Positions 2,505 to 19,343 of a DNA stretch of 64,000 nt are shown piece by piece. The number at the start of each line of letters is the position of its first letter. Within the stretch, counting starts at the first letter, position 1. The notes under the pieces were generated by a model that did no database searches, was not told where the DNA came from, and was given only the letters and a program-made list of their open reading frames with translations. Source of the DNA: Promethearchaeota archaeon (lineage in GTDB: Archaea > Asgardarchaeota > Lokiarchaeia > Sigyniarchaeales > SOKP01); contig JAUVXW010000017.1 in assembly GCA_030603385.1 (NCBI GenBank), positions 1 through 64,000 of the forward strand. Reading direction: 5' to 3'. The translations under genes and the position numbers were made by a program.

Positions 2505-3636
2505 TTACATCATCTCCAAAAATGCCTCTATCCTTGTTGATAATTGTCCCCTGTTAGCTCTTGAATAATCTCTTTCTAAATTCAATACATAAATGCCTTT
2601 TTCTTTTAACTGATTTTTTAAATGGGAGGACATAATTGACATGTGATCGCAAAACTTAATTATGTGGTTTATAACACCTATTTTTTTTCCCGTTTTCTTT
2701 TCATAATTTATGAAAAAGTTCTCTATATGTGATACTTTCCGTTCAAGGAAATTTGGAACTGAATGATCTCCGTAAATATTTTTCTCAAATCGATGGGTTA
2801 ATAAATCAATAGAATCTTTTGAAGCGTTTAAAACCTTATCATCAATTATTTGGTAATAATAATTAAACCCAACCCATGTATCAAAAAATACAACATTTCC
2901 ACCACCCTCTTCAATTAAATCATTTAAATAATCATCAATGAAAATTGAGCAACCTGTTAGTAAAATATCTTTTGATTCCTCTGATTTTTGGGTTTGTGAT
3001 TGCTCTAAGATTATATTGTCTAGTTCAGGGAGGATAACAGGACCATATAACATCGCTTTTTGAAAAATTTTTAACTTTTGAGAACCCTTTAAGGTTAAAT
3101 TGCTTATTTCTAATATTTTTTTTTTTTAAAATATTATATTTCTTAATACTATCCATTAAATCCTGATTATCTATTTTTGTTCCTGTGATCTCTTCAAGCT
3201 GTTTTTTTAGATCTAATAATTCTAGTTTGAAGTATTTCAAACTGTTCCCGGTTTTTGTGTAGGATACATAAAAATTCAAACGTTGTATATTAAAATATTT
3301 AGCTATAACTTCAGACGCACATATATCTGATACACAATGATTTGAGACAATAAAATAATCTATTAACTCTAAAAACCTATAAGGATCCGGTTTTACGGAA
3401 AATACGCCTATACAAGATTGAGCAAATGCACAAGTTGAGGGAGAAAGAAAATCATGACTAGCATCCATTAACTCATCATTTCCAGCAAAGATCAATCTTA
3501 GGGGAACAAATCCAGCAGCATCTATTAATTCTTCTGGGATGTTATCATGTGACATGAATGCCACAACTTTTTTACCCTCTCCCTTCTTTTCTTTAAGGAA
3601 TGTATAATATTCCGATAGAAGCTCAAAGTTGTACAT
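2505..3636 (-). pseudogene. 2-hydroxyacyl-CoA dehydratase subunit split by a +1 frameshift at an A12 run (ORFs 3025..3636 and 2505..3053); may be intact in vivo
   Basis: N-half has IPEELIDAAGFVP and STCAFAQSC; C-half has IIKFCDH and GQLSTRIEAFLEM. Removing one T from the run at 3116-3127 joins them into a 376-aa ORF. Confidence 0.8.
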
Positions 3637-6576: not shown

Positions 6577-7215
6577 ATGAATAAGATTAAAGACGAAATT
6601 ATTTCAATGTTAATTGAACATTCAAGGATCATTTATTCTGTTATTTCGGATATGGGTGTTTACTATTCAACCTGGGCTAAAGATTACGAGTCTAATAAGG
6701 ACACCTTAGAAAAGAAAAAGAGTAAGATGCAACTTCGCGAAGAAGATGCAGATGCTATTAAAATTCAATTAATCCAAAAATATTCTGAAGCTGGACCGCA
6801 AGGCTTGGGAGACTATATAGCATTAATCTTGAGAATGGATAATGTTATTAATTACCCTCTTGAGTTTGTTGACATGTTACCAAAAATAAAATTAGACGGC
6901 GGAAAGGTTGATGAAATAAATAAAAGATATGAAAAATTGATTAATAAAACTATTAATATGGCTAGTGTCTTAAAATCGACAATAAAAAGCCTAAGAGATA
7001 AACCTGAAGTTGTATTTAAAAACACTACGACAATCCATGAAATTGAAAATGAGATTGATACTATATATCGTCAGTTTCTTGAATATCTGTATTCCAATGA
7101 GGATTTAGATATTAGGAAACTTCTAAGAATTAGAGATAGTATCGTTTTACTGGAAAGTATGTGCGATAAAATCCATGATATAGCCGATATCATAAGAGTT
7201 CTGTTATACCAATAA
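6577..7215 (+). CDS. DUF47/PhoU-like helical protein (phosphate transport regulator family)
   Basis: Duplicated EEDAD and ENEID motifs, LESMCDKIHDIAD; all-helical composition. Confidence 0.75.
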   Translation: MNKIKDEIISMLIEHSRIIYSVISDMGVYYSTWAKDYESNKDTLEKKKSKMQLREEDADAIKIQLIQKYSEAGPQGLGDYIALILRMDNVINYPLEFVDMLPKIKLDGGKVDEINKRYEKLINKTINMASVLKSTIKSLRDKPEVVFKNTTTIHEIENEIDTIYRQFLEYLYSNEDLDIRKLLRIRDSIVLLESMCDKIHDIADIIRVLLYQ

Positions 7216-7410: not shown

Positions 7411-7773
7411 ATGAATGGTAAACATAAATTTTATTTATTACTTGGAATATTTCAAGTGGTATTGATTTTCTTAGTAATTTTCACATCAAATGGAATTGTA
7501 TCTTTTGCTAGTGCTCAGGGTACTACATTTGAGTATTATGATTCAGGAACCACAGCTACTTTAGCAATAGCCGTAGCATTATCTGTAAGTTTTTCAGTAC
7601 TCGGAAGTGCTTGGGCTATGAAAACAGTGGGTACAGCAGCTATAAGTGCACTTTCAGAAAGAGAAGAAGCCTTCTTTAAAGCGTTTCTTGTTGTTGCCTT
7701 ATGCGAAGCACTAGCAGTTTACGGATTAATTGTAGGAATTTTACTATGGACAAAAATCCCTACACCTATATGA
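7411..7773 (+). CDS. atpK: A/V-type ATPase proteolipid subunit K (c), single hairpin with an N-terminal hydrophobic leader
   Basis: Ion-carrying Glu in ALCEALAVYGLIV; first gene of the ATPase operon. Confidence 0.92.
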   Translation: MNGKHKFYLLLGIFQVVLIFLVIFTSNGIVSFASAQGTTFEYYDSGTTATLAIAVALSVSFSVLGSAWAMKTVGTAAISALSEREEAFFKAFLVVALCEALAVYGLIVGILLWTKIPTPI

Positions 7774-7826: not shown

Positions 7827-8876
7827 ACGAGTGTTATTGTCGATAGCTATGCTTTTACTCTAATCAAAATTGGTTTTTTGAAACAATTAATAATGGATGA
7901 AATAACTCTAAAAAAGTTAGAAGATATCACCAATATAGAACAGTTAATTGAGTACATTGGAAGGTTTTACCCGGGATTAACCTTTGATTCTTTTACTATT
8001 GAAGAAATTGAGAGAGCATTATTTCATACTTATATAAAATTAATTGGAAGAATAATAGTGCATTCTCCAAGAACTATGCGTTCATTTCTTAGGAATTACC
8101 TTATGAAGTATGAAATAATGAATATTAAACGTATTATTTTAGGCACTATTCTTGGAATGAGTATAAACGATAAATCAAAACTGGTTAATAAACTCGTAGA
8201 AAAATACTTAAACAATACAGATTTCATAAACGGGCTTCTAGAAATTACATCTTTAGATCAAATTCAATTTTATATGAAAAATACTAAATATAATAAAGCC
8301 ATAAGAGAAGGAATTCTTTACTTTCGAAATACTAAAGAAATTTTTGTGTTAGAAGCCTTCCTAGATAGACTCTATTATGAAACTATGGAAAATGAAATAA
8401 AATTTCTAAATCTTAAAGAAAAAGTAATGATCTCTTTCTATGTGAATTATATATCTGAGATATATAATTTGAATATAATATATAGAGGTATTAAGATCAA
8501 TATTGACAGGAATTTACTTTCACAGTTCCTTGTTAACAATTATATGTTCTTGAATCAAGGATCTCTAAATGATCTATTAAATCTAACTAGTATTAATGAT
8601 TTCATCACACTTTTATCTGAATTTTTAATTAGAAAAAAGGAAATAAGACCCAATTTACTACGTTCTCCTCTTAAAGGAGAACATTTGATTTGGGAAATTG
8701 AAAAGCTATATTTGGATTACTTTTTTAGAACATTTCAAATAAAAATAGATGATATAGCATATCAATCAATTTTCAGGATTATGGAGTTGTTAATTAGAAA
8801 AGATAATGAAATTAAAATTCATGTATTACCTAGGGTTGTAGAGATTTTACATGAAAAATATAAGGTGTTAAAATAA
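7827..8876 (+). CDS. atpC: A/V-type ATPase subunit C (d); proposed ACG start at 7827 (ORF track TTG 7878)
   Basis: KYEIMNIKRII, LEAFLDRLYY and operon position. The frame is open upstream to TGA 7824 and encodes SVIVDSYAFTLIKIGFLK, matching the family N-terminal YA-x4-I helix. Confidence 0.85.
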   Translation, partial: TSVIVDSYAFTLIKIGFLKQLIMDEITLKKLEDITNIEQLIEYIGRFYPGLTFDSFTIEEIERALFHTYIKLIGRIIVHSPRTMRSFLRNYLMKYEIMNIKRIILGTILGMSINDKSKLVNKLVEKYLNNTDFINGLLEITSLDQIQFYMKNTKYNKAIREGILYFRNTKEIFVLEAFLDRLYYETMENEIKFLNLKEKVMISFYVNYISEIYNLNIIYRGIKINIDRNLLSQFLVNNYMFLNQGSLNDLLNLTSINDFITLLSEFLIRKKEIRPNLLRSPLKGEHLIWEIEKLYLDYFFRTFQIKIDDIAYQSIFRIMELLIRKDNEIKIHVLPRVVEILHEKYKVLK

Positions 8877-9187
8877 TGGATCTTTTTGAAAATTTAAAAG
8901 ACATTGAAAAGGTTTATGAAGATCTAGTAAATAATGCTAAGAATTTAAACTTAAAAGAAATTGAGAAATATAGAGATAATGAACAAAGGACATTTGAGAG
9001 ATTTATTATCGAGAAGAATGAGCTTGTAAATGAGGTATTGGGAACACTTGCTAAAGAAGTTAATACAAAAATTAATAATTTTGAAAATAAATTTGATGGA
9101 GCAATTAAAAAGATTGAGTTACATTTTCAAAAAAGTATTAGGAATCTACAGAAAATAATTATAGAAGAGGTAGGGCTAGATTTCTAA
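8876..9187 (+). CDS. atpH: A/V-type ATPase peripheral stalk subunit H/G
   Basis: 103-aa charged coiled coil (LKDIEK..E.LVNNAK) between subunits C and F, with overlapping stop/start codons. Confidence 0.7.
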   Translation: MDLFENLKDIEKVYEDLVNNAKNLNLKEIEKYRDNEQRTFERFIIEKNELVNEVLGTLAKEVNTKINNFENKFDGAIKKIELHFQKSIRNLQKIIIEEVGLDF

Positions 9188-9513
9188 TGTTCGATAAAGA
9201 AGTTCATATTGTTGGGGATGAAGATATTGTTTTAATGTTAGGACTTCTAGGAATAGAGGGTACAATAATTGAAAACCGAGAAGAATTCCTAAAAGTATTT
9301 AATAATTTGATAAATCTACCAAAAATAGGAATGATTCTTATAGCATTAAGGTTATCTAATGATATAATTGATTTTCTGTTAGATTTTAAACTAAATAACA
9401 AAGAACCATTTATATTTATTCTTCCTGATGTTTTTCAGCCAAATGTAGAAAGGTTAGATGTCCTTTTAAATAAAATCTCCAATGCAATTAGCGATATAGA
9501 GTTGTTAAAATGA
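9187..9513 (+). CDS. atpF: A/V-type ATPase subunit F
   Basis: HIVGDEDIVLMLGLLGI and PFIFILPD. Confidence 0.88.
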   Translation: MFDKEVHIVGDEDIVLMLGLLGIEGTIIENREEFLKVFNNLINLPKIGMILIALRLSNDIIDFLLDFKLNNKEPFIFILPDVFQPNVERLDVLLNKISNAISDIELLK

Positions 9514-9524
9514 GTTGAGTAAAA

Positions 9525-10253
9525 ATTTCTGAAGAAAAAGAGTTTAAAAAACAGCTAGGTAATTTAGGCCGTTATTTAATTGAGAAAGCCCAAAATGAAA
9601 TAAAGGAATTAAATCAAAAAACCCTTTTTCAAAAAGCTGAAATAAAAAAAAGGTTTTTAGAAAGGAGTGATGATAGAGAGATCAAATTGAAGCAACATTT
9701 TATAGATAGTTACTATCAATTTTTAAATCAGTCATTGTCTTTAACTCTACTGAATGGTAAAGAAAAATTTTTAAATATAAAAAATAATTTAATTAAAAAA
9801 TTAAATGCATCGTTATTTAAGCTCATAAGAGAAAAAATGGATAATAATTATGCTTCATATATAGACTATCTTTTAGATTCAATAAAAAATGTAAAGAAAA
9901 CCATAGACAGGCCCCAGGAGATAGAATTAATTTTTAACCATAAAGATTATAACTATTTTATTAAGAATTTTGATAAAATTGTAGATTTATTTAAGAATCC
10001 AATAGAAATTAATGAAGATAAAAGAGACTTCATAGGTGGATTTAAAGTTTCTCTAGTGGGGGGGGTAATATCTTACGATTATACAATTGACAATCTAATT
10101 AATAAAAATTCCTCCTTTATTCAGATGGAAATATCCAAAATCATAAATGACTCTGAAATTAAGGAGATTGAAATAGAATTTGAAGAATTTATTAAAAATC
10201 ATAAAAAATTAATTACAGAATACCTAACTCAGTATGATCAAATCCAAAACTAA
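9525..10253 (+). CDS. atpE: A/V-type ATPase subunit E; proposed ATT start at 9525 (ORF track TTG 9687)
   Basis: C-terminal DFIGGFKV...SYDYTIDNL. The frame is open from 9519 and encodes the N-terminal stalk helix SEEKEFKKQLGNLGRYLIEKAQNEIKEL. Confidence 0.82.
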   Translation: MSEEKEFKKQLGNLGRYLIEKAQNEIKELNQKTLFQKAEIKKRFLERSDDREIKLKQHFIDSYYQFLNQSLSLTLLNGKEKFLNIKNNLIKKLNASLFKLIREKMDNNYASYIDYLLDSIKNVKKTIDRPQEIELIFNHKDYNYFIKNFDKIVDLFKNPIEINEDKRDFIGGFKVSLVGGVISYDYTIDNLINKNSSFIQMEISKIINDSEIKEIEIEFEEFIKNHKKLITEYLTQYDQIQN

Positions 10254-12072
10254 CAACAATTCTCAGAAGGGGCATATTTCTGCAATAGTTGGTTCTTTAA
10301 TTAGAGTAAAAGGATTAGAGAATCAAATACGATTGCATGATTTGATTAAAGTTAGAAATATGTTGGGAGAAGTTATACAAATTTATTCAGATTATATTGT
10401 GGTACAATGCTTTGAAAATACTACTAATTTACGAATTAATGAAAAAGTTATAAATTTAAATGAACCCTTATCAATGGAGTTAGCACCAGGATTATTAGGA
10501 ACTATTTTTGATGGAATACAAAGACCGCTTCAAAAAGCTTTCGAAAAACATAAAAGTGGGCAATTAACAAGAGGATTAGAAATACCATCGCTGTCAAGAA
10601 CAAAAAAATGGCATTTTATTCCATTAGAAAGAACTAAAGGTAATGTAACAGGAGGAGATGTAATTGGGACTGTCCAAGAAACACAGGCTATACAACATAA
10701 AATAATGATTCCACCAAATATTAGTGGTAGGTTAACCTATCTTGCAAATGAAGGAGATTATACGATAGAACAAGAATTATACAGATTAGAGATAGGACAG
10801 GAAGTAAAATCTTTTTCAATGATGCAAAAATGGCCTATAACAACATCTAGACCATTTAAAGAAAGAATGCTACCTGGTGAACCGTTAATTACAGGGATAC
10901 GCGTTATAGATTTATTGTTTCCAATCACTAAAGGGGGCACTATTGGTGTTCCAGGAGGATTTGGAACTGGTAAGACAGTTATTCAACAGTCATTAGCTAA
11001 ATGGTGTGATGCAGATGTCTGCATTTTTGTGGCATGTGGTGAAAGAGGAAATGAGGTTGCTGATGTTTTAAAACAGTTTTCTGAAATTATTGATCCTAAA
11101 AGTGGTCAACCCTTATTAAATAGAATCGTTCTTATTGCTAATACTTCAAATATGCCCGTATCAGCACGAGAGGCAAGTATCTTTTCTGGAGTCACTATTG
11201 CTGAATATTATAGAGATATGGGGTATGATGTTGCTGTTCTCGCTGATAGTACTTCAAGATGGGCGGAATCTTTAAGAGAAATATCCGGACTATTGGAGGA
11301 AATGCCTGCTGAAGAAGGATACCCTGCGTATTTGCCTTCAAAACTTTCTGGTTTTTATGAACGAGCTGGTATTGTTAAACTTCTTGGGAATGAAGAGATA
11401 GGAAAAGAAAGAGTAGGATCTATAGCTATTATTGGTTCAATTAGTCCACCTGCTGGTGATTTTAGTGAACCTGTAACAGCAACCACCAAAAATTTTGTAC
11501 AAGGGATATGGGCTTTGGATGCGGGATTAGCATATTCAAAACATTATCCCGCTATAAACTGGTTAGATTCATATTCAAACTACCCTGATTATATCTCTGA
11601 ATGGTGGTACGAGAGAGATATAAACTGGTCAGAAATTGATGTTGACTGGTTTGATTGTCGTAATCAAGTCAATGAAATTTTATCTCAAGACAATGAATTA
11701 AAATATATTACCCAACTAATTGGTGAAGAAAATTTACCAGATGACCAACAATTAACTTTATTTATTGCCAAACTAATTAAAAATGGATTTTTAATTCAAA
11801 ATGCCTATGATGATATTGATAATTTTACAGATGTCCGAAAACTCTTAGGTATGATTAAAGTTATTCTTTTATTGTTTAAAGAAAGTAAAGAATTATTAAA
11901 ACAAGGATTTCTAATCGAAGATATAAAATCACTCTTAGTTATTAATGATATTTTAAGAATAAATAGAACAATTTCTAATGATGATTTTGATAAAATTGAG
12001 GGTATTAAAAGAAAATTACTCAGTGATATAGAGTCTTTAAAACTAACCCAAGGAGTATTAAAAAAAAGATGA
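10234..12072 (+). CDS. atpA: A/V-type ATPase catalytic subunit A (copy 1)
   Basis: P-loop [49 protein letters not shown]. Confidence 0.97.
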
Positions 12073-13460
12073 GCGTTATTTACAGAAAAATTCAACAAAT
12101 AATTGGACCACTTATATTTCTTAAAAACGAGCATAATGCCCAATTTGGCGAGATAGTTATAATTAGAACAGATGATGAAAAAATTCGCATGGGGCAAATT
12201 ATAAAAATGAGTGAAGAAATTATAGTGGTAGAAGTATTTGAAGATACTGCTGGATTATCTACCGAGAATGCTGAAATTATTTTCACAGAAGATACATTCA
12301 AAGTAAAAATATCAAAAGATATGTTCGGTCAAACATTTAATTCTTTAGGAAAACCAATTGATATTAAAACAAAAGCAGTATTAGATTCAGATCTTTTATC
12401 AGATGTTCAAAGAGATATAAGTGGAGTTCCTATTAATCCATTTGCAAGAGAATATCCTGTAGACATAATTCAAACTGGAATATCAGTAATTGATGGATTA
12501 TTTACATTAATTAGGGGTCAAAAACTCCCGATATTTAGTGGACAAGGATTACCTCACAATAAATTAGCTGCCCAAATTGCTACACAAGCAAAAGTATTAG
12601 GAGAGGAACCATTCGTAATAATCTTTTGTGGTATAGGCATCATTCATGACGAGGCAATTTATTTTTTAAATCGTTTTCAAGAAAGTGGATCTATTCAAAA
12701 TATAATTTCTTTTATAAATTTTGCAGATGACCCGATAATCGAAAGGTTAATTATCCCAAGAGTTGCTTTAACAACAGCAGAATATTTTGCGTTTGAAAAA
12801 GATATGCACGTTCTTGTCATATTGATAGACATGACTAACTATGCTGAAGCTTTAAGAGAACTCAGTTCAGCAAAAGAAGAAATCCCTAGTAGAAAAGGAT
12901 ATCCGGGATATATTTATTCCGATTTTGCTTCAATTTATGAGAGGACAGGAAAAATTAAAGGAAAAAAGGGCACAATAACTCAAATCCCGATTCTTACTAT
13001 GCCATCAGATGATATATCACACCCAATTAGCGACACTACCGGTTATATAACTGAGGGGCAATTAGTACTTAGCCGTGGTCTACATAAAAAAGGCATTTAT
13101 CCTCCATTTGAAGTATTAGCCTCCATTTCACGATTAATGAAAGATGCTATAGGTAAAGAAAAAACAAGAGAAGATCATGCTGATGTTAGCTCACAATTAT
13201 TATCAGCATATTCAAATTATCTCGAAGTTAAAGATCTTATTTCAATCGTTGGAGAAGATGGCTTAAGTTATGAACAGAAGAATTTTTTAAAATTTGGAGT
13301 AGACTTTGAACAAAAATTTTTAAATCAAAAAGTAAATGAAAATCGTGATTTTGAAACTACACTTAATTTAGCTTGGGAAGTGCTTTCAAATTTAAATACA
13401 GATCAATTATTTAGAATTCATCAAAGATTTTTAGATAAATATTATAAAACCAAGGTGTAA
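12069..13460 (+). CDS. atpB: A/V-type ATPase subunit B
   Basis: [34 protein letters not shown] and the Arg finger SISRLM. Confidence 0.96.
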
Positions 13461-13463
13461 GTT

Positions 13464-14111
13464 ATCAGTTTTCGTGCTATAAAACCCACAAAATCAAATT
13501 TGATAGGATTACAAAAGAGATTAGTTTTTGCTGTTAGAGGAGAAACTTTTTTAGAATATAGACGAGAACAATTAGTCTTTCAAATTAAACGATTATGGAA
13601 AGAATATTTAGAAATAAGAAGCAATTTTATTGCTTTATTTAAACAATCACTTATAAAATTAAATCAAACTTATGAAGAAATGGGTAAAAACGGGGTTATT
13701 TTAATTAGTAAATTAAGCAGAATTCAATATAGACCTATGGTAGACATACAATATCAAAAGAAAGCAGGAATTGTTGTTCCCCGCATTAATTTTGAATTAT
13801 TTCAAGAGGAAAAACTGCCTGCTTATACATTTGAGGGTACAAGTCATTTTCTTGATGATTTAATTATCTTATTGAAAGGATTTTTTAAAGCAACGATTGA
13901 ATTTTCTGAAATTGAAGATTTAATATTGAAACATGCTATTAGCTTTAAAAAGGTAAATCGTAGGATAAATGGACTAAAAAATATGATTATTCCAAAATTA
14001 AGGATGAATATAAAACAAATTAGAGAAATTTTGGAAGAAATTGAGAGAGAAAACTATGTAAGACTGAAAAAAACTAAAGATTTAATTTTAAGTAAAGAAA
14101 AAACCATATGA
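13464..14111 (+). CDS. atpD: A/V-type ATPase subunit D; proposed ATC start at 13464 (ORF track TTG 13500)
   Basis: RRINGLKNMIIP and LEEIERENYVRLK. The conserved N-terminal KPTK..L lies upstream of the TTG. Confidence 0.9.
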   Translation: MSFRAIKPTKSNLIGLQKRLVFAVRGETFLEYRREQLVFQIKRLWKEYLEIRSNFIALFKQSLIKLNQTYEEMGKNGVILISKLSRIQYRPMVDIQYQKKAGIVVPRINFELFQEEKLPAYTFEGTSHFLDDLIILLKGFFKATIEFSEIEDLILKHAISFKKVNRRINGLKNMIIPKLRMNIKQIREILEEIERENYVRLKKTKDLILSKEKTI

Positions 14112-14123
14112 GCATGATAAAAA

Positions 14124-16418
14124 ATGGTCAAAAGAAATGAATTTAGTTTAATAAAAGCAGAAATAAACCACAATTATAAAGATCAATTCCTAATTGAACT
14201 CTCAAATCTAAATGTAGTCCATATAAAACCAAGAGAAGAAAGCAAAATTAAGGAAGAATTAGAAGAGAAACATCCTCTAAAGGAAAAAATTAAAGATTTA
14301 AGGAAAAATTTAAACAATTTATATAGAAAGCTCGAAATAAGTGAGCTTGATGTTTTAGAGTTAAAAATTGCTAAGGATGATAGAATAGAGTTTACTGCTA
14401 GAGATTTACCAGAATTAATTACCCATATTGTAGAAGAAATCGATTTTTATACAAATCGAGTAGCTGAGTTAAATAGTTATATTGCTAAAGGTATAATAGA
14501 ATTAGAAAATCTAAAGTTAATCAAAATTTGCTATAGGCGTATAGAAAAATTAAATCTGAATGCAGAAAAAATAGATAATTTGAAGCAATTTAAATTTCGA
14601 ATCTTAACAACTTTTAGTAAAAACTTAACTAATTTAAAAAATCTATTTGAACCCTCAGAATTTCCTAGTTTTTATGAAACCTTTGAGATTTCTGATGATC
14701 GAATTGGCTTCTATATTATTTATCCAAAAGATAAGGAGAATGAGTTTAATGCGAGGATTCGATTAATACATTCTGAGGAAGTTCTAGTACTTAAAAGATA
14801 TTTGACAAAAGAAGGAATAAATTTTCTAAGAATAATTAAAGAAATAAATTTTATTGAAAATCTGGTTTCACGATATAAAAAAGAACAAACTCGAATAGCA
14901 AAAGATAATATGGGAAGGTTCGCAGGGATTAATGAGGTTGTGCAAAATATTGAGGAATATAATTGGGCGGAGCATCAATTTGAAAGCACAGTATCTAATC
15001 GTTTAAGTTTTAAGTTCTTTCTTCCCTCACGGAAAAAAGAGGAGGTTGTTCAAAGTTTATTTACAATTTTTAAAGACAATATTACAATTCAATCAATCGA
15101 TATCTCAAAAAAACACACCATTAAAGAGTCTTTTACCTCAAAAAAAGGAAAAATAAAAAAATACAAACAAGAACCAACACTAAAAGAAGATTATCTCAAA
15201 CAAAATGAAACTAGTGAAATGCATAAAGAAGAAGATTTAAGAGAATCTTCTCCAACAATAATGAAAAACTTCTTTTTGATACGTCCATTCGAAGCAATCA
15301 CCAGATTATATGGCACACCAACTTATTCTGAAATTGATCCTACTCCGGTTATTGCTTTTACTTTTCCAATATTATTTGGTTTAATGTTTGGTGATATAGG
15401 TCATGGGATAATTTTAATAATCGCGGGATTAATAGGAGGATTAGTGTTTAGGAAACGGGGAGGAGACACTGCCAATTTTTCATGGATTATCTTTTTCTGT
15501 GGATGGGCTGCATTTTTTACCGGATTTTTATACGGAGAATTTTTGGGACATCATGAGATAGAAATATTTGGAAATGTATTATGGGATTTTGAAGAAAATC
15601 CAATCATAATTCCGATTATAGGATCTTTAAATAATCCATTGGAAAATATAATGAGTGTATTTACTTTTGCGATATATATTGGTGTGTTTCATATTAATTT
15701 GGGATGGTTTATTCAATTTCTGAATTATTGGAAACAAAAAAGAAAATATTTGGGATTTAGTGATTCTTTGATGAAAATTCTATTGTTGATTGGAGGAACT
15801 ATTTTAATTTTTGGATTTGGATTCGATATTTATGGATGGTTATCCCCCCCTTATCCAATTTTGTTAACTTTAATTCCAGGTGTTTTATTATTACTACTTA
15901 AACCTCTCGGAAAAATCTTTAAAATTTCATATCTACAAGAAGAATCTTTTGGAGGTTTATTGGGTGAAGGTTCAATTGAAGCCTTTGATACTGTTTTATC
16001 AGTTGTGACTAATGTAGCCTCATATACTAGGTTATTAGCTTTAGCACTCGCTCATATCGCACTTCTCACATCTATCAATGCAATGACAGGATTAATTGAA
16101 GGGGAAGGTATAGGAGTAGATATTATAAATTTAATTGGTGTGATTTTCGGTAATATGATTGTTATTTTACTCGAAGGCTTATTAGTGTTCATTAACACTA
16201 TCAGATTACATTTTTATGAGTTTTTCTTTAAATTCTACCAGGGTTCAGGAATTGATTATTTTCCATTTTATTTAGACAATGATTACTCTATACTAAAATT
16301 TAGGGCTGAAGCTGAGAAAGACATCATTTCAGAGGAAATTGAGAAAGAGATTGATACACAATTAGTAAAAGAAGAAATAGATAAAGCTATAAGTTATATC
16401 TCAAAGAAATTTGCATAA
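14124..16418 (+). CDS. atpI: A/V-type ATPase subunit I (a)
   Basis: YGTPTYSEIDPT, FGLMFGDIGHG, essential Arg in SYTRLLAL, RLHFYEFF. Confidence 0.95.
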   Translation: MVKRNEFSLIKAEINHNYKDQFLIELSNLNVVHIKPREESKIKEELEEKHPLKEKIKDLRKNLNNLYRKLEISELDVLELKIAKDDRIEFTARDLPELITHIVEEIDFYTNRVAELNSYIAKGIIELENLKLIKICYRRIEKLNLNAEKIDNLKQFKFRILTTFSKNLTNLKNLFEPSEFPSFYETFEISDDRIGFYIIYPKDKENEFNARIRLIHSEEVLVLKRYLTKEGINFLRIIKEINFIENLVSRYKKEQTRIAKDNMGRFAGINEVVQNIEEYNWAEHQFESTVSNRLSFKFFLPSRKKEEVVQSLFTIFKDNITIQSIDISKKHTIKESFTSKKGKIKKYKQEPTLKEDYLKQNETSEMHKEEDLRESSPTIMKNFFLIRPFEAITRLYGTPTYSEIDPTPVIAFTFPILFGLMFGDIGHGIILIIAGLIGGLVFRKRGGDTANFSWIIFFCGWAAFFTGFLYGEFLGHHEIEIFGNVLWDFEENPIIIPIIGSLNNPLENIMSVFTFAIYIGVFHINLGWFIQFLNYWKQKRKYLGFSDSLMKILLLIGGTILIFGFGFDIYGWLSPPYPILLTLIPGVLLLLLKPLGKIFKISYLQEESFGGLLGEGSIEAFDTVLSVVTNVASYTRLLALALAHIALLTSINAMTGLIEGEGIGVDIINLIGVIFGNMIVILLEGLLVFINTIRLHFYEFFFKFYQGSGIDYFPFYLDNDYSILKFRAEAEKDIISEEIEKEIDTQLVKEEIDKAISYISKKFA

Positions 16419-16455: not shown

Positions 16456-16893
16456 GTGCCGGAAACTAAAGAAAAAGTATTAAATCGCAAGGTAATTATT
16501 GTTCGGTTTCTATTATTAGTCGGTTATTTACTTATTTTACTATATTTTTTTTATCTTTTAACTAAATTTGGTGCTAATCCTTTTATAACTTTCATTTTAC
16601 TTCTATTCACATTTTTAATAACTATAGGTCCATTTTTTAGTCGAAGTAAGAGATCTCTTTATTCTAGAATGTTTCCTGATAGAAAAAGAAGATCGTCGTT
16701 TGAAAATGAACAAAAAGAAAAGGTTTTTAAAAATAAGAGAAAATTTGAGCAAGCTGAACCAAAAATCTTTAAAAAAATTAATCTTGAATTTAATTATCGT
16801 AAGCCAATTATATTTAAATGTGAAAATTGTGGTAATACTATACCCAATTTTGTGAAAAAATGTCCATTTTGTAATAAACATATAGCTTATTAA
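16456..16893 (+). CDS. Two-TM membrane protein with a C-terminal zinc ribbon
   Basis: Two hydrophobic segments, a basic linker and CENC...CPFC. Confidence 0.7.
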   Translation: MPETKEKVLNRKVIIVRFLLLVGYLLILLYFFYLLTKFGANPFITFILLLFTFLITIGPFFSRSKRSLYSRMFPDRKRRSSFENEQKEKVFKNKRKFEQAEPKIFKKINLEFNYRKPIIFKCENCGNTIPNFVKKCPFCNKHIAY

Positions 16894-16917: not shown

Positions 16918-18720
16918 ATGAAAGAATTGAGCCAAGGATATATTTCAGCCATTATAGGTTCTTTAATAAAAGTAAAGGGATTAGAAAATAATGTACGACT
17001 TAATGATATGATTAAAATCTCTAAATATAATATTCTAGCAGAAGTTATTCAAATTTATGCAGATTACGTCGTCGCTCAGTGTTTCGAAAATACTATGAAG
17101 GTAAAATTATATGAAAAAGTTGAAAATCTAAATGAACCGCTTTCGATGGAATTGGCCCCTGGTCTAATTGCTAGTGTTTTTGATGGAATTCAAAGGCCTC
17201 TGGAAAGAATTTTTGAAAATTTAGATTCCGGAGAATTAGAAAGAGGCATAAAATATCCTGCTATATCAAGAAAAAAAAAATGGCATTTTATACCTTTGAG
17301 GAAATTAGGTGATGAAGTTAAAGGAGGAGATGTAATAGGATCGGTTAAAGAAACAGAATACATTGATCATAAAATAATGGTTCCTCCTAATTCTACTGGA
17401 ATAATTTCGTTCATGGCTAATGAAGGCGATTATACCATAACAGAAGAAATTTATAAAATAAAAGATAATAATAATGAAATTTCTTTCCCAATGTTACAAA
17501 AATGGCCAATCACTAAAAATAGACCTTACACAAAGAAAGAAAATCCGAATGAACCGTTAATAACAGGAATACGTGTTATAGATTTATTATTTCCAATCGT
17601 GAAAGGTGGTACAACAGCTATTCCTGGAGGATTTGGAACTGGTAAGACAGTTATTCAACAATCATTAGCTAAATGGTGTAATGCTGATGTGATAGTATTT
17701 ATTGCATGCGGTGAACCCGGGAATGAGGTTGCAAATGTCTTAAAGCAATTCTCAGAAATTAAAGACCCTGAAAGAGGTACTCCTTTATTAGATCATATAA
17801 TAGTTATTGCTAATACCTCCAATATGCCTGTATCAGCACGAGAAGCCAGCTTATTTTCTGGAGTGACTATAGCTGAATATTATCGAGATATGGGATATGA
17901 TGTTGTTGTGTTAGCAGATAGTATATCAAGATGGGCAGAGTCTCTGAGAGAAATCTCTGGATTATTGGAAGAAATGCCCGCTGAGGAAGGCTATCCGGCA
18001 TATTTACCCTCTAAACTTTCGAGTTTTTATGAGAGAGCTGGATCGGTTAAAACATTAGGTGTGGATCATTTAGGTGCGGAGAATAAAGGTTCTTTAACTA
18101 TTATTGGAACTGTTTCACCACCAGCAGGTGATTTCAGTGAACCAGTTACCTCAACAACTAAAAGATTAGTACAAGTTTTTTGGGCTTTGGATCCAAAATT
18201 AGCTTATTTAAAACACTTTCCTGCTATAGATTGGCTTAATTCGTATTCAAACTATCCTGCATATATCGCTGATTGGTGGTACGAAAGAGACATTGATTGG
18301 CCTGAAATTAACATTGATTGGGTCCAATGTCGAAAACAAGTGAATGATATCTTATCGAAAGAACGGGACTTGAAATATTTAATTCAATTAATAGGGGAAA
18401 AGAACTTACCAGAAGATCAACAGTTAATAATCTTTATTACAAAATTAATTAAAAACGGGTTTTTAATCCAAAGTGCTTTTGATGAAATTGATAGTTTTAC
18501 CGATGTTGAAAAACTATTAGGTTTAATTAAATTGATCTTATTAATCTACAATAATGGGAAAGATCTTGTTAATCAAGGAATATTACTTGAAGATTTTTTA
18601 GATTCTGAGCTTATCAACAAAATCCTGCGAATTAGCCAAACAGTTCCTAATAATAAATTCAAACAAATTGAAAGAATAAAGAATGAATTGATAAAGAAAT
18701 TTAGATTGTTGAGTGTGTAG
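16918..18720 (+). CDS. atpA: A/V-type ATPase subunit A, second copy with an altered catalytic motif (GEPGNE)
   Basis: Colinear with 10234..12072; GGFGTGKT is intact but CGEPGNE replaces CGERGNE. Confidence 0.93.
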
Positions 18721-18746: not shown

Positions 18747-19343
18747 TTATGGCTTAAACCACTCAAAGAAATAATATGATTTGGTTAATGGGTTTGCAAT
18801 AACAAATTTTTTCCTTACAGATGTTGCCAATCTCCCGGCACGAACCATATCTACTGCTGTAATCTCAGCATCATGAGGTAAAACATGCACCATGAAAAGT
18901 GAATGTTCCAGACCGGGTCCAAGGCGGTAAGTTACAAAGTCCGCCCCGAATTTTAATCCAGGTCTCGGAATGTATCCTTTTTCCCTTAAATCTTTATAAA
19001 TTATGTACTTTTCCTCAAATTTATGATGTATATTCTTCGCTAGCTTATAAAATTCCTTTGGGCTTAAATCTTTGTTCTCTTTTACATCAAAAATTATAAT
19101 TTCATCTTTTTCTAAAAGGTAATATGCCTCTATTAACGATAATTCGCTTGGCTTAGAAAAATATTCTAATCGTGGTTTATTAATTCCAAGTGGGGAACCA
19201 AAAAAACCTTTCTTTACATATAAATAAGAAGCGTATAAAGGATTAAATACAATAACTCTGTTATTAATGAACTTGGTTGGAATTCTTTCTGGTACTTCAA
19301 TGTCATCAAGATTTATTTGATTATCCTTTGCTTGATTCATCAT
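18747..19343 (-). CDS. endA: tRNA-intron endonuclease, catalytic subunit
   Basis: ELSLIEAYYL, YKDLREKGY, PGLKFGADFVTY, GPGLEHS, RLATSVRK (Tyr/His/Lys triad). Confidence 0.93.
   Translation of the reverse strand: MMNQAKDNQINLDDIEVPERIPTKFINNRVIVFNPLYASYLYVKKGFFGSPLGINKPRLEYFSKPSELSLIEAYYLLEKDEIIIFDVKENKDLSPKEFYKLAKNIHHKFEEKYIIYKDLREKGYIPRPGLKFGADFVTYRLGPGLEHSLFMVHVLPHDAEITAVDMVRAGRLATSVRKKFVIANPLTKSYYFFEWFKP

Follow-up and report, generated by a model that had tools for sequence, protein, structure and literature searches.

A single A/V-type rotary ATPase operon in the window (the whole stretch of Lokiarchaeia DNA analyzed here, 64,000 nucleotides) carries two genes for subunit A. The second of them, A2 (16918-18720, + strand, 600 aa), encodes a proline in place of the arginine of the GER loop. 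Our data demonstrate that A2 is an intact paralog under purifying selection, and that it is real, conserved and restricted to one Lokiarchaeia family. We assign a probability of about 0.5 to the reading that A2 is a nearly inactive, nucleotide-binding subunit A, which assembles with subunit B and stalls the rotary head.

The canonical catalytic subunit A1 (10234-12072, + strand, 612 aa) contains the motifs CGERGNE and DSTSRW. A2 is 67% identical to A1 over 595 aa, and a Trp-rich WYERDI.W.EI..DW segment is common to both proteins. The codon after the catalytic Glu is AGA in A1 (Arg271, 11044-11046) and CCC in A2 (Pro267, 17716-17718, + strand). Alignment to solved structures placed Pro267, without gaps, on residue 262 of E. 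hirae subunit A and residue 258 of T. thermophilus, a position that corresponds to E. coli beta-R182; the E. hirae residue 262 is chain index 269 less a 7-residue tag. In the E. hirae enzyme, R262 binds ATP at the tight site (bioRxiv 10.1101/2021.12.07.471682). Residue 267 is Pro in all 69 full-length A2 proteins and Arg in all 188 canonical subunits A, comprising 100/100 A1 of the family and 88/88 outgroup sequences.

The original prediction described A2 as a full-length, uninterrupted paralog with an intact P-loop, held that the change from AGA to CCC is unlikely to be a read error, and regarded the lost Arg as near-invariant and in contact with phosphate. These claims are borne out: the 600-aa frame has no stops and contains the Walker A motif GGFGTGKT, Pro is found in 79 related genomes with all four Pro codons in use, and the Arg is equivalent to E. 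hirae R262 and T. thermophilus R258 and constant in canonical subunit A. The accompanying change from DSTSRW to DSISRW is present in the A2 of the window, but it is neither a second impairment nor a feature of the A2 class, since the position is polymorphic. Thr occurs in 36/69 and Ile in 33/69 A2 proteins, and the canonical A of one genome (G060) also has Ile; DSISRW was thus rejected as a second lesion.

A2 contains the Pfam domains PF02874, PF16886, PF00006 and PF22919, with a beta-barrel, a non-homologous region, a nucleotide domain and a C-terminal domain, and scores 740 against NCBIfam NF003220 (cut-off 470), whereas the equivalog cut-off of TIGR01043 (972) is missed by A1 and A2 alike (733 and 734). 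A2 belongs to the A/V-ATPase subunit A sequence family. Of the features of a competent catalytic subunit A, it has the Walker A motif, the catalytic Glu and the Mg ligands, and lacks the phosphate-binding Arg. The Walker A motif (17626-17649, + strand) retains its Lys243 in 69/69 A2 proteins, and its last Thr is Ser in 2/69. The catalytic Glu266 (17713-17715, + strand) and the Mg ligands Glu270 and Asp334 are each present in 69/69; Arg308 is also invariant, and the Walker B region DSISRW (17917-17934, + strand) keeps Asp334 and Arg338 invariant around the Thr/Ile polymorphism at residue 336. Among 144 columns that are near-invariant in A1 and the outgroups, A2 retains 126 at a frequency of at least 90%, and only R267 is replaced in all A2 copies.

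Besides Pro267, the changes diagnostic of A2 are D273N, I312L, S431L and E495K/R (all on the + strand). Asn273 (17734-17736) is found in 60/69 A2 proteins, replacing an Asp present in 99/100 A1, and lies at the modelled interface with B. Leu312 (17851-17853) is constant in A2 (69/69), as is Ile in A1 (100/100). Leu431 (18208-18210), near the aromatic residue 434 of the adenine pocket, occurs in 67/69 A2 proteins and is mostly Ser in A1. Lys495 (18400-18402) occupies the first acidic position of the rotor-contact loop equivalent to DELSEED, where 60/69 A2 proteins have Lys or Arg and 98/100 A1 have Glu. The adenine pocket and the B-contact loops are kept, and no new Arg or Lys is fixed in A2 close to the active site. 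Both A1 and A2 depart family-wide from near-universal residues (ISGRLEE to ISGLLEE, that is R349L; R432K; M271I/V; and the Trp-rich insert), and the whole enzyme is divergent in the A2-bearing family. A further difference concerns A1 residue 420 (11491-11493), a near-universal Arg that A2 keeps as R416 in 69/69. This residue is Asn in 25/63 A1 from A2-bearing genomes, the window genome included, and Arg without exception in the 29 A1 from genomes that were scored as having no operon A2; the Asn probably arose in a single event and possibly marks a division of roles.

Selection on A2 was evident at both the gene and the codon level. Pairwise dN/dS is 0.10-0.20 for A2 versus 0.08-0.15 for A1, A2 evolves about 1.3 times faster than A1, and none of the listed A2 matches contains an internal stop. 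On an A2 tree of 11 substitutions per site, the Pro codon takes all four forms through at least 24 synonymous changes and no amino-acid change, whereas the mean A2 site needs 8.3 amino-acid changes. This synonymous-only pattern argues that Pro is positively required, rather than a mere tolerated loss of Arg. It had been considered beforehand that the Pro might be private to this genome and under relaxed selection; its presence in 79 genomes, the synonymous changes and the dN/dS values contradict this.

The Pro substitution is confined to the A2 clade. We scanned DNA with the pattern GE-x-GNE followed by NTSNMP, which with x left free matched 72 of 73 outgroup A genes. With x as Pro, 73 matches were obtained in 185,579 species, all of them inside the A2 clade; no match had a codon with A or T at the second position, nor Ser (TCN), Thr, Ala, Gly, Cys or Trp, in the same species, the scan covering A-type subunits that carry this motif, and Ser only through its TCN codons. 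Metagenomes gave 76 matches without Arg, of which 73 are the Pro of the A2 clade and the other three are single-base singletons. Two single metagenome subunits A (L430 and L433, the latter at a normal operon position) have Met or Gln for Arg, each one base away from an Arg codon, and these are probably errors. The 120 nearest proteins comprise 112 with Pro and 8 with Arg. Across 301 genomes of the phylum, the short pattern GEPG gave only scattered matches outside the A2 family, as in the reversed control, and the ten that were checked are not ATPase genes. The search of Asgard genomes for a subunit A with GEPGNE, proposed with the original prediction, thus found it in 79 genomes of one Lokiarchaeia family.

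The relatives are Promethearchaeota (Lokiarchaeia) MAGs. Operons and loci were read across the 135 genomes of the family, where A2 is present in seven genera and has Pro every time; independent assemblies agree on it. On every contig that extends far enough, A2 lies directly 3' of I-ZR, apart from two genomes with a stand-alone A2, so that the proposed check of synteny and dN/dS found it nearly always last in the operon and constrained. The two exceptions belong to genus g23, in which A2 sits alone among unrelated genes (L448:10072-11925 in G096 and L449:1154-3031 in G095). Both copies have GGFGTGKS and REISSRLEEM and nest within the A2 clade, and the G096 copy must have its own promoter, as its upstream gene is divergent. 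In the closed chromosome of G006 (CP070831; L119, L120), A1-B-D is located at ~2.19 Mb and I-ZR-A2 at ~3.05 Mb, and no K, C, G, F or E gene was seen next to A1.

Twenty-seven genomes have an intact operon end without A2 and a single subunit A. A2 presence requires at least five state changes on the B-D-I tree, a count that scored G095, G096 and G130 as lacking A2 while all three have it, and well-supported sister pairs differ. A2 is therefore accessory, since these 27 genomes have only A1 and two others keep A2 away from the operon. In the subunit A tree, A2 forms one clade (support 100/97) with a short stem, nested among the family's A subunits, which agrees with the in-lineage duplication originally proposed, and its subclades largely mirror those of A1. 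Judged from the trees, the simplest reading would be that A2 arose by a single early duplication within the family, placed only approximately, and was then lost several times. Ongoing gene conversion between A1 and A2 was rejected, as identity within genomes equals identity across genomes; genus g18 is an exception, with a probable conversion event, a 76-nt identical tract and an A1 that groups with A2. Among the 135 genomes, none with an intact operon relies on A2 as its sole A. In three genomes where A2 is the only A found, B is missing too, and in a fourth B is truncated by the contig end, which points to assembly gaps. None of B, D, F, E, C, K, I, ZR and G co-varied convincingly with the presence of A2, and no link of A2 presence with membrane PPase or antiporter-type pumps was visible by eye.

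The operon of the window runs on the + strand in the order K(c)-C-G-F-E-A1-B-D-I, followed by ZR and A2. It begins with subunit K (c; 7411-7773), a single hairpin with the carboxylate motif EALAVYG, and continues with subunit C (d; 7878-8876), subunit G/H (8876-9187, a weak Pfam match with E 6.5e-4, under the cut-off), subunit F (9187-9513) and a probable subunit E (9687-10253), assigned by position without a Pfam hit. Downstream of A1 lie the single subunit B (12069-13460), whose arginine finger R355 is encoded at 13131-13133, the rotor subunit D (13500-14111), subunit I (a; 14124-16418), with the conserved Arg motif SYTRLLAL, and ZR (16456-16893). A convergent tRNA intron endonuclease gene (18747-19343, - strand) 3' of A2 closes the operon. 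Moreover, tblastn of the whole assembly, which is 94% complete, found two A, one B and one I, in accordance with the single B gene originally reported. With one B, one I and no second set of genes at the A2 loci, we rejected A2 as part of a second independent complex.

The N-terminal half of the 145-aa ZR is hydrophobic, and a zinc ribbon lies at its C terminus. This membrane zinc-ribbon protein belongs to no named family and stands at the end of the operon in nearly every genome of the family. The Atlas cluster closest to it is unnamed and has 147 Promethearchaeota members, and ZR could be an accessory subunit that has gone unrecognised. ZR was rejected as a dedicated partner of A2, because it is present in almost all operons that lack A2 and missing beside both stand-alone A2 genes. 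The gap between ZR and A2 is mostly 19-60 nt. No separate promoter signal was found before ZR or A2: TATA-like words in the I-ZR gap reach 0.40 versus 0.36 +/- 0.06 in shuffles, none is enriched before A2, and a sigma-70 scan, with a model that does not suit archaea, was at chance (64 vs 75). From the short gap and the lack of a promoter signal, we infer that A2 is transcribed together with the rest of the only rotary ATPase operon, in which it comes last.

An AlphaFold single-chain model of A2 was used only for the fold and for placing Pro267. This moderate model (pLDDT 70, with segments 336-368 and 399-454 below 50) matches 7VAI and 3VR6. In it, strand 258-265 and helix 270-280 flank a loop that contains Pro267, and Pro may fix this loop ahead of the helix. 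The A2-B model, which covers the catalytic interface of one A-B pair, scored 0.62 versus 0.00 for the best control, a score that shows likeness rather than binding, since A3B3 heads are already solved and the score may reflect those known structures. The mark for such scores was reached by 58/80 solved complexes and 2/110 mismatched pairs; the runs agree in at least 77% of contacts, and the partner pLDDT is at least 84. The modelled interface is the catalytic one, with A2 residues 267-273 and 298-305 facing B residues 325-331 and 350-356, including the finger R355. The A2 residues at this interface have accumulated 4.3 changes per site versus 7.7 in the rest of A2 (0.95 in the nucleotide domain), and such conserved B-contact surfaces would fit the entry of A2 into the head. 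A2 as a substitute for B was rejected. It cannot take that role because it lacks an arginine finger, the corresponding position 445, hand-aligned from the PxIxxLxSxS motif, being Asn in 66, Thr in 2 and His in 1; A2 also scores only 133 against the B model (cut-off 349).

Loop 343-362, part of the lining at the centre of the head, has changed only 10 times across 61 genomes. The C-terminal domain changes 1.45 times faster in A2 than in A1, with no acceleration in the non-homologous region, and the rotor loop changes 2.85 times faster and has lost a negative charge; its residues Q490, L491, G493 and L497 stay conserved. Alignment by motif pairs residue 495 with E. hirae D480, which opens the DSLSDND loop in contact with rotor subunit D (PMC3879392). 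Since Ala substitutions in the DELSEED loop barely alter F1 torque (PMC3879392), Lys495 may matter little.

By analogy with E. coli mutants, we infer that A2 is catalytically impaired. The beta-R182Q enzyme has an ATPase activity of 0.020 vs 42 umol/min/mg, shows no Pi binding and no transition state, and binds MgADP unaffected (PMC3268026), and one dead site of three blocks F1 (PMC4415626). We propose that A2 would fold like A and take an A position beside B in the A3B3 head. It would still bind Mg-nucleotide, probably ADP better than ATP, and would bind Pi and form the transition state poorly. Because a rotary head fires its three sites one after another, a head with one A2 would stall or crawl, and the A2:A1 ratio would determine the number of turning heads and thereby throttle proton pumping driven by ATP. 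A brake on ATP consumption would make sense here, as antiporter-type redox ion pumps are not seen in most of the family's genomes: PF00361, which covers the antiporter-type modules of complex I, Mrp and membrane hydrogenases, is found in 6/135 family genomes vs 13/14 controls. Membrane PPase is found in 112/135, and Rnf and NuoH gave no match in the five genomes tested. A more specific form, in which A2 acts as a natural dominant-negative subunit in heads of three kinds of subunit (A1, A2 and B), with an ADP-selective, Pro-locked site tying the motor to energy charge, can be put forward only tentatively.

Several observations weigh against a stalled head. A dead enzyme need not keep Glu266, Glu270, Asp334, Arg338 and Lys243, which are invariant in A2. 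If A2 made up half of all A and mixed freely, the share of turning heads would be only (1-0.5)^3 = 12.5%, a high price to pay at all times, and A2 is missing from the 27 operons with intact ends, whose B, D, F, E and ZR show no clear change that tracks its absence. The invariant catalytic Glu and the cost of a co-transcribed dominant-negative subunit are the reasons why our estimate stays at even odds. The same facts would suit a slow but working catalytic isoform, in which the Pro loop together with N273, L312 and L431 retunes phosphate handling and provides a low-gear pump or synthase under energy limitation. Every other catalytic and Mg-binding residue is invariant, including Glu266 as the general base; P267 and N273 are at the modelled catalytic interface, with L431 adjoining; E. 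coli R182 mutants retain trace activity; and constitutive co-transcription would be cheaper if A2 turned over. We nevertheless regard this isoform as doubtful, as no new Arg or Lys has been fixed near the site, no genome was found with A2 as its sole A, and no other replacement residue appeared in the 185,579 species (with Ser by AGY outside the scan).

A role outside the turning motor, either as an assembly placeholder or storage partner for B or detached heads, or as a nucleotide sensor with another partner, would account for the faster C-terminal domain and rotor loop, the mostly Lys residue at the rotor-loop acid, and the A2 of genus g23 that lives away from the operon and ZR. We consider such a role unlikely, given the near-constant loop 343-362 and the conserved Q490, L491, G493 and L497; additionally, repeated absence of A2 without visible change in the other subunits fits a required assembly factor poorly. 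The dispensability of A2 and its rate relative to A1 could also suggest a decaying or neutral duplicate, or an assembly artefact. This is highly improbable, because decay is refuted by the codon evidence, the Pro having survived its synonymous changes in an open, constrained frame on which independent assemblies agree.

The reading of A2 as an impaired subunit A that stalls the head can be compared with several known systems. The subunits A of P. horikoshii (1VDZ/3M4Y), T. thermophilus (7VAI/3A5C) and E. hirae (3VR2-3VR6), all NF003220, have the same four domains and fold; A2 differs from them in having Pro for the phosphate Arg and mostly Lys for the rotor-loop acid, and in coexisting with A1 and a single B. 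[quoted passage not shown] However, B has a degenerate Walker A (SGxGLPHN) and supplies the arginine finger (SRL), whereas A2 keeps GGFGTGKT and the Glu and has Asn at the finger position. Engineered F1 enzymes (E. coli beta-R182Q/K and TF1 hybrids with one beta-E190Q) also show that a single dead site is dominant, and beta-R182 is the very residue lost in A2; those are laboratory F-type mutants with Gln or Lys, while A2 is natural, has Pro and is under selection. Mycoplasma extra F1-like ATPases and second complete A/N-type operons likewise place additional head-subunit paralogs in one genome, and the MMOB1670 and MSC_0618 models match A2 weakly. These systems bring their own non-catalytic partner and rotor-like parts; A2, in contrast, comes alone and must share B.

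Restraint of ATP hydrolysis in archaeal A-type enzymes is poorly known. Elsewhere, the purpose of hydrolysis inhibitors is to stop wasteful ATP hydrolysis at low energy, and the hydrolysis-limiting devices listed are MgADP, epsilon, zeta, IF1, AtpTheta, the chloroplast disulfide and V1 detachment, with no crippled catalytic paralog (bioRxiv 10.64898/2026.10.01.756066). The proposed purpose of A2 would be the same as that of epsilon, zeta, IF1, AtpTheta, MgADP inhibition and V1 detachment. These known inhibitors are small inserted proteins, ligand states or disassembly, and mostly quickly reversible, whereas A2 is a full 600-aa A subunit, and a dead A2 site would block synthesis as well as hydrolysis. 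Searches of mainly open-access literature found no description of GEPGNE, a duplicated Asgard subunit A or such pseudo-enzyme paralogs; the motif GEPGNE returned only an unrelated paper, and the passages searched in an ATP synthase phylogeny make no mention of an A2-like paralog. The A2 system is thus apparently undescribed in the literature searched.

Rotary heads are taken to consist of three catalytic and three non-catalytic subunits, and A2 is a conserved natural exception at the GER-loop Arg. With A2, one can ask directly whether the admixture of a crippled catalytic subunit is able to regulate a head. If the dominant-negative reading is true, a rotary ATPase would be regulated by subunit composition; if A2 turns over instead, rotary catalysis would proceed without a residue thought essential. 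Since databases label A2 as plain subunit A, metabolic reconstructions of abundant sediment Asgard archaea miss the difference. The present analysis adds the Pro-only result across species, the synonymous-change count, the charge reversal in the rotor loop and the stand-alone copies.

Additional observations concern other genomes of the family and the surroundings of the operon. In G099 (L349), the P-loop of the only subunit A reads GAVGTGKT, which is unusual, and no ZR was found behind I. Subunit A ORFs of 1131-1155 aa in G063 (L331) and G046 (L169) are interrupted at the P-loop, probably by inteins. A fructose-1,6-bisphosphatase gene occupies the usual place of A2, on the opposite strand, in G012 (L356:2332-3336) and G063 (L331:6323-7324). 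No subunit A match was obtained in G018 (98% complete) or G076 (93%), and G018 also had no B match. Upstream of K, several genera have an ORF of ~490-500 aa (L280:14990-16468, L316:15742-17214, L274:1085-2584), with no Pfam hit over the cut-off in the two that were scanned. A PhoU-like (DUF47) gene, which often lies directly upstream of the operon, is located at 6577-7215 (+ strand) in the window. It occurs 5' of K in many of the family's genomes as well as in other Lokiarchaeia (G044, G050, G054), and may connect the operon with phosphate regulation. Farther upstream, at 2505-3636 (- strand), two overlapping ORFs of 203 and 182 aa lie between a BadF-type activator gene and a 453-aa ORF, and look like one dehydratase-type subunit gene with a frameshift near an A-run.
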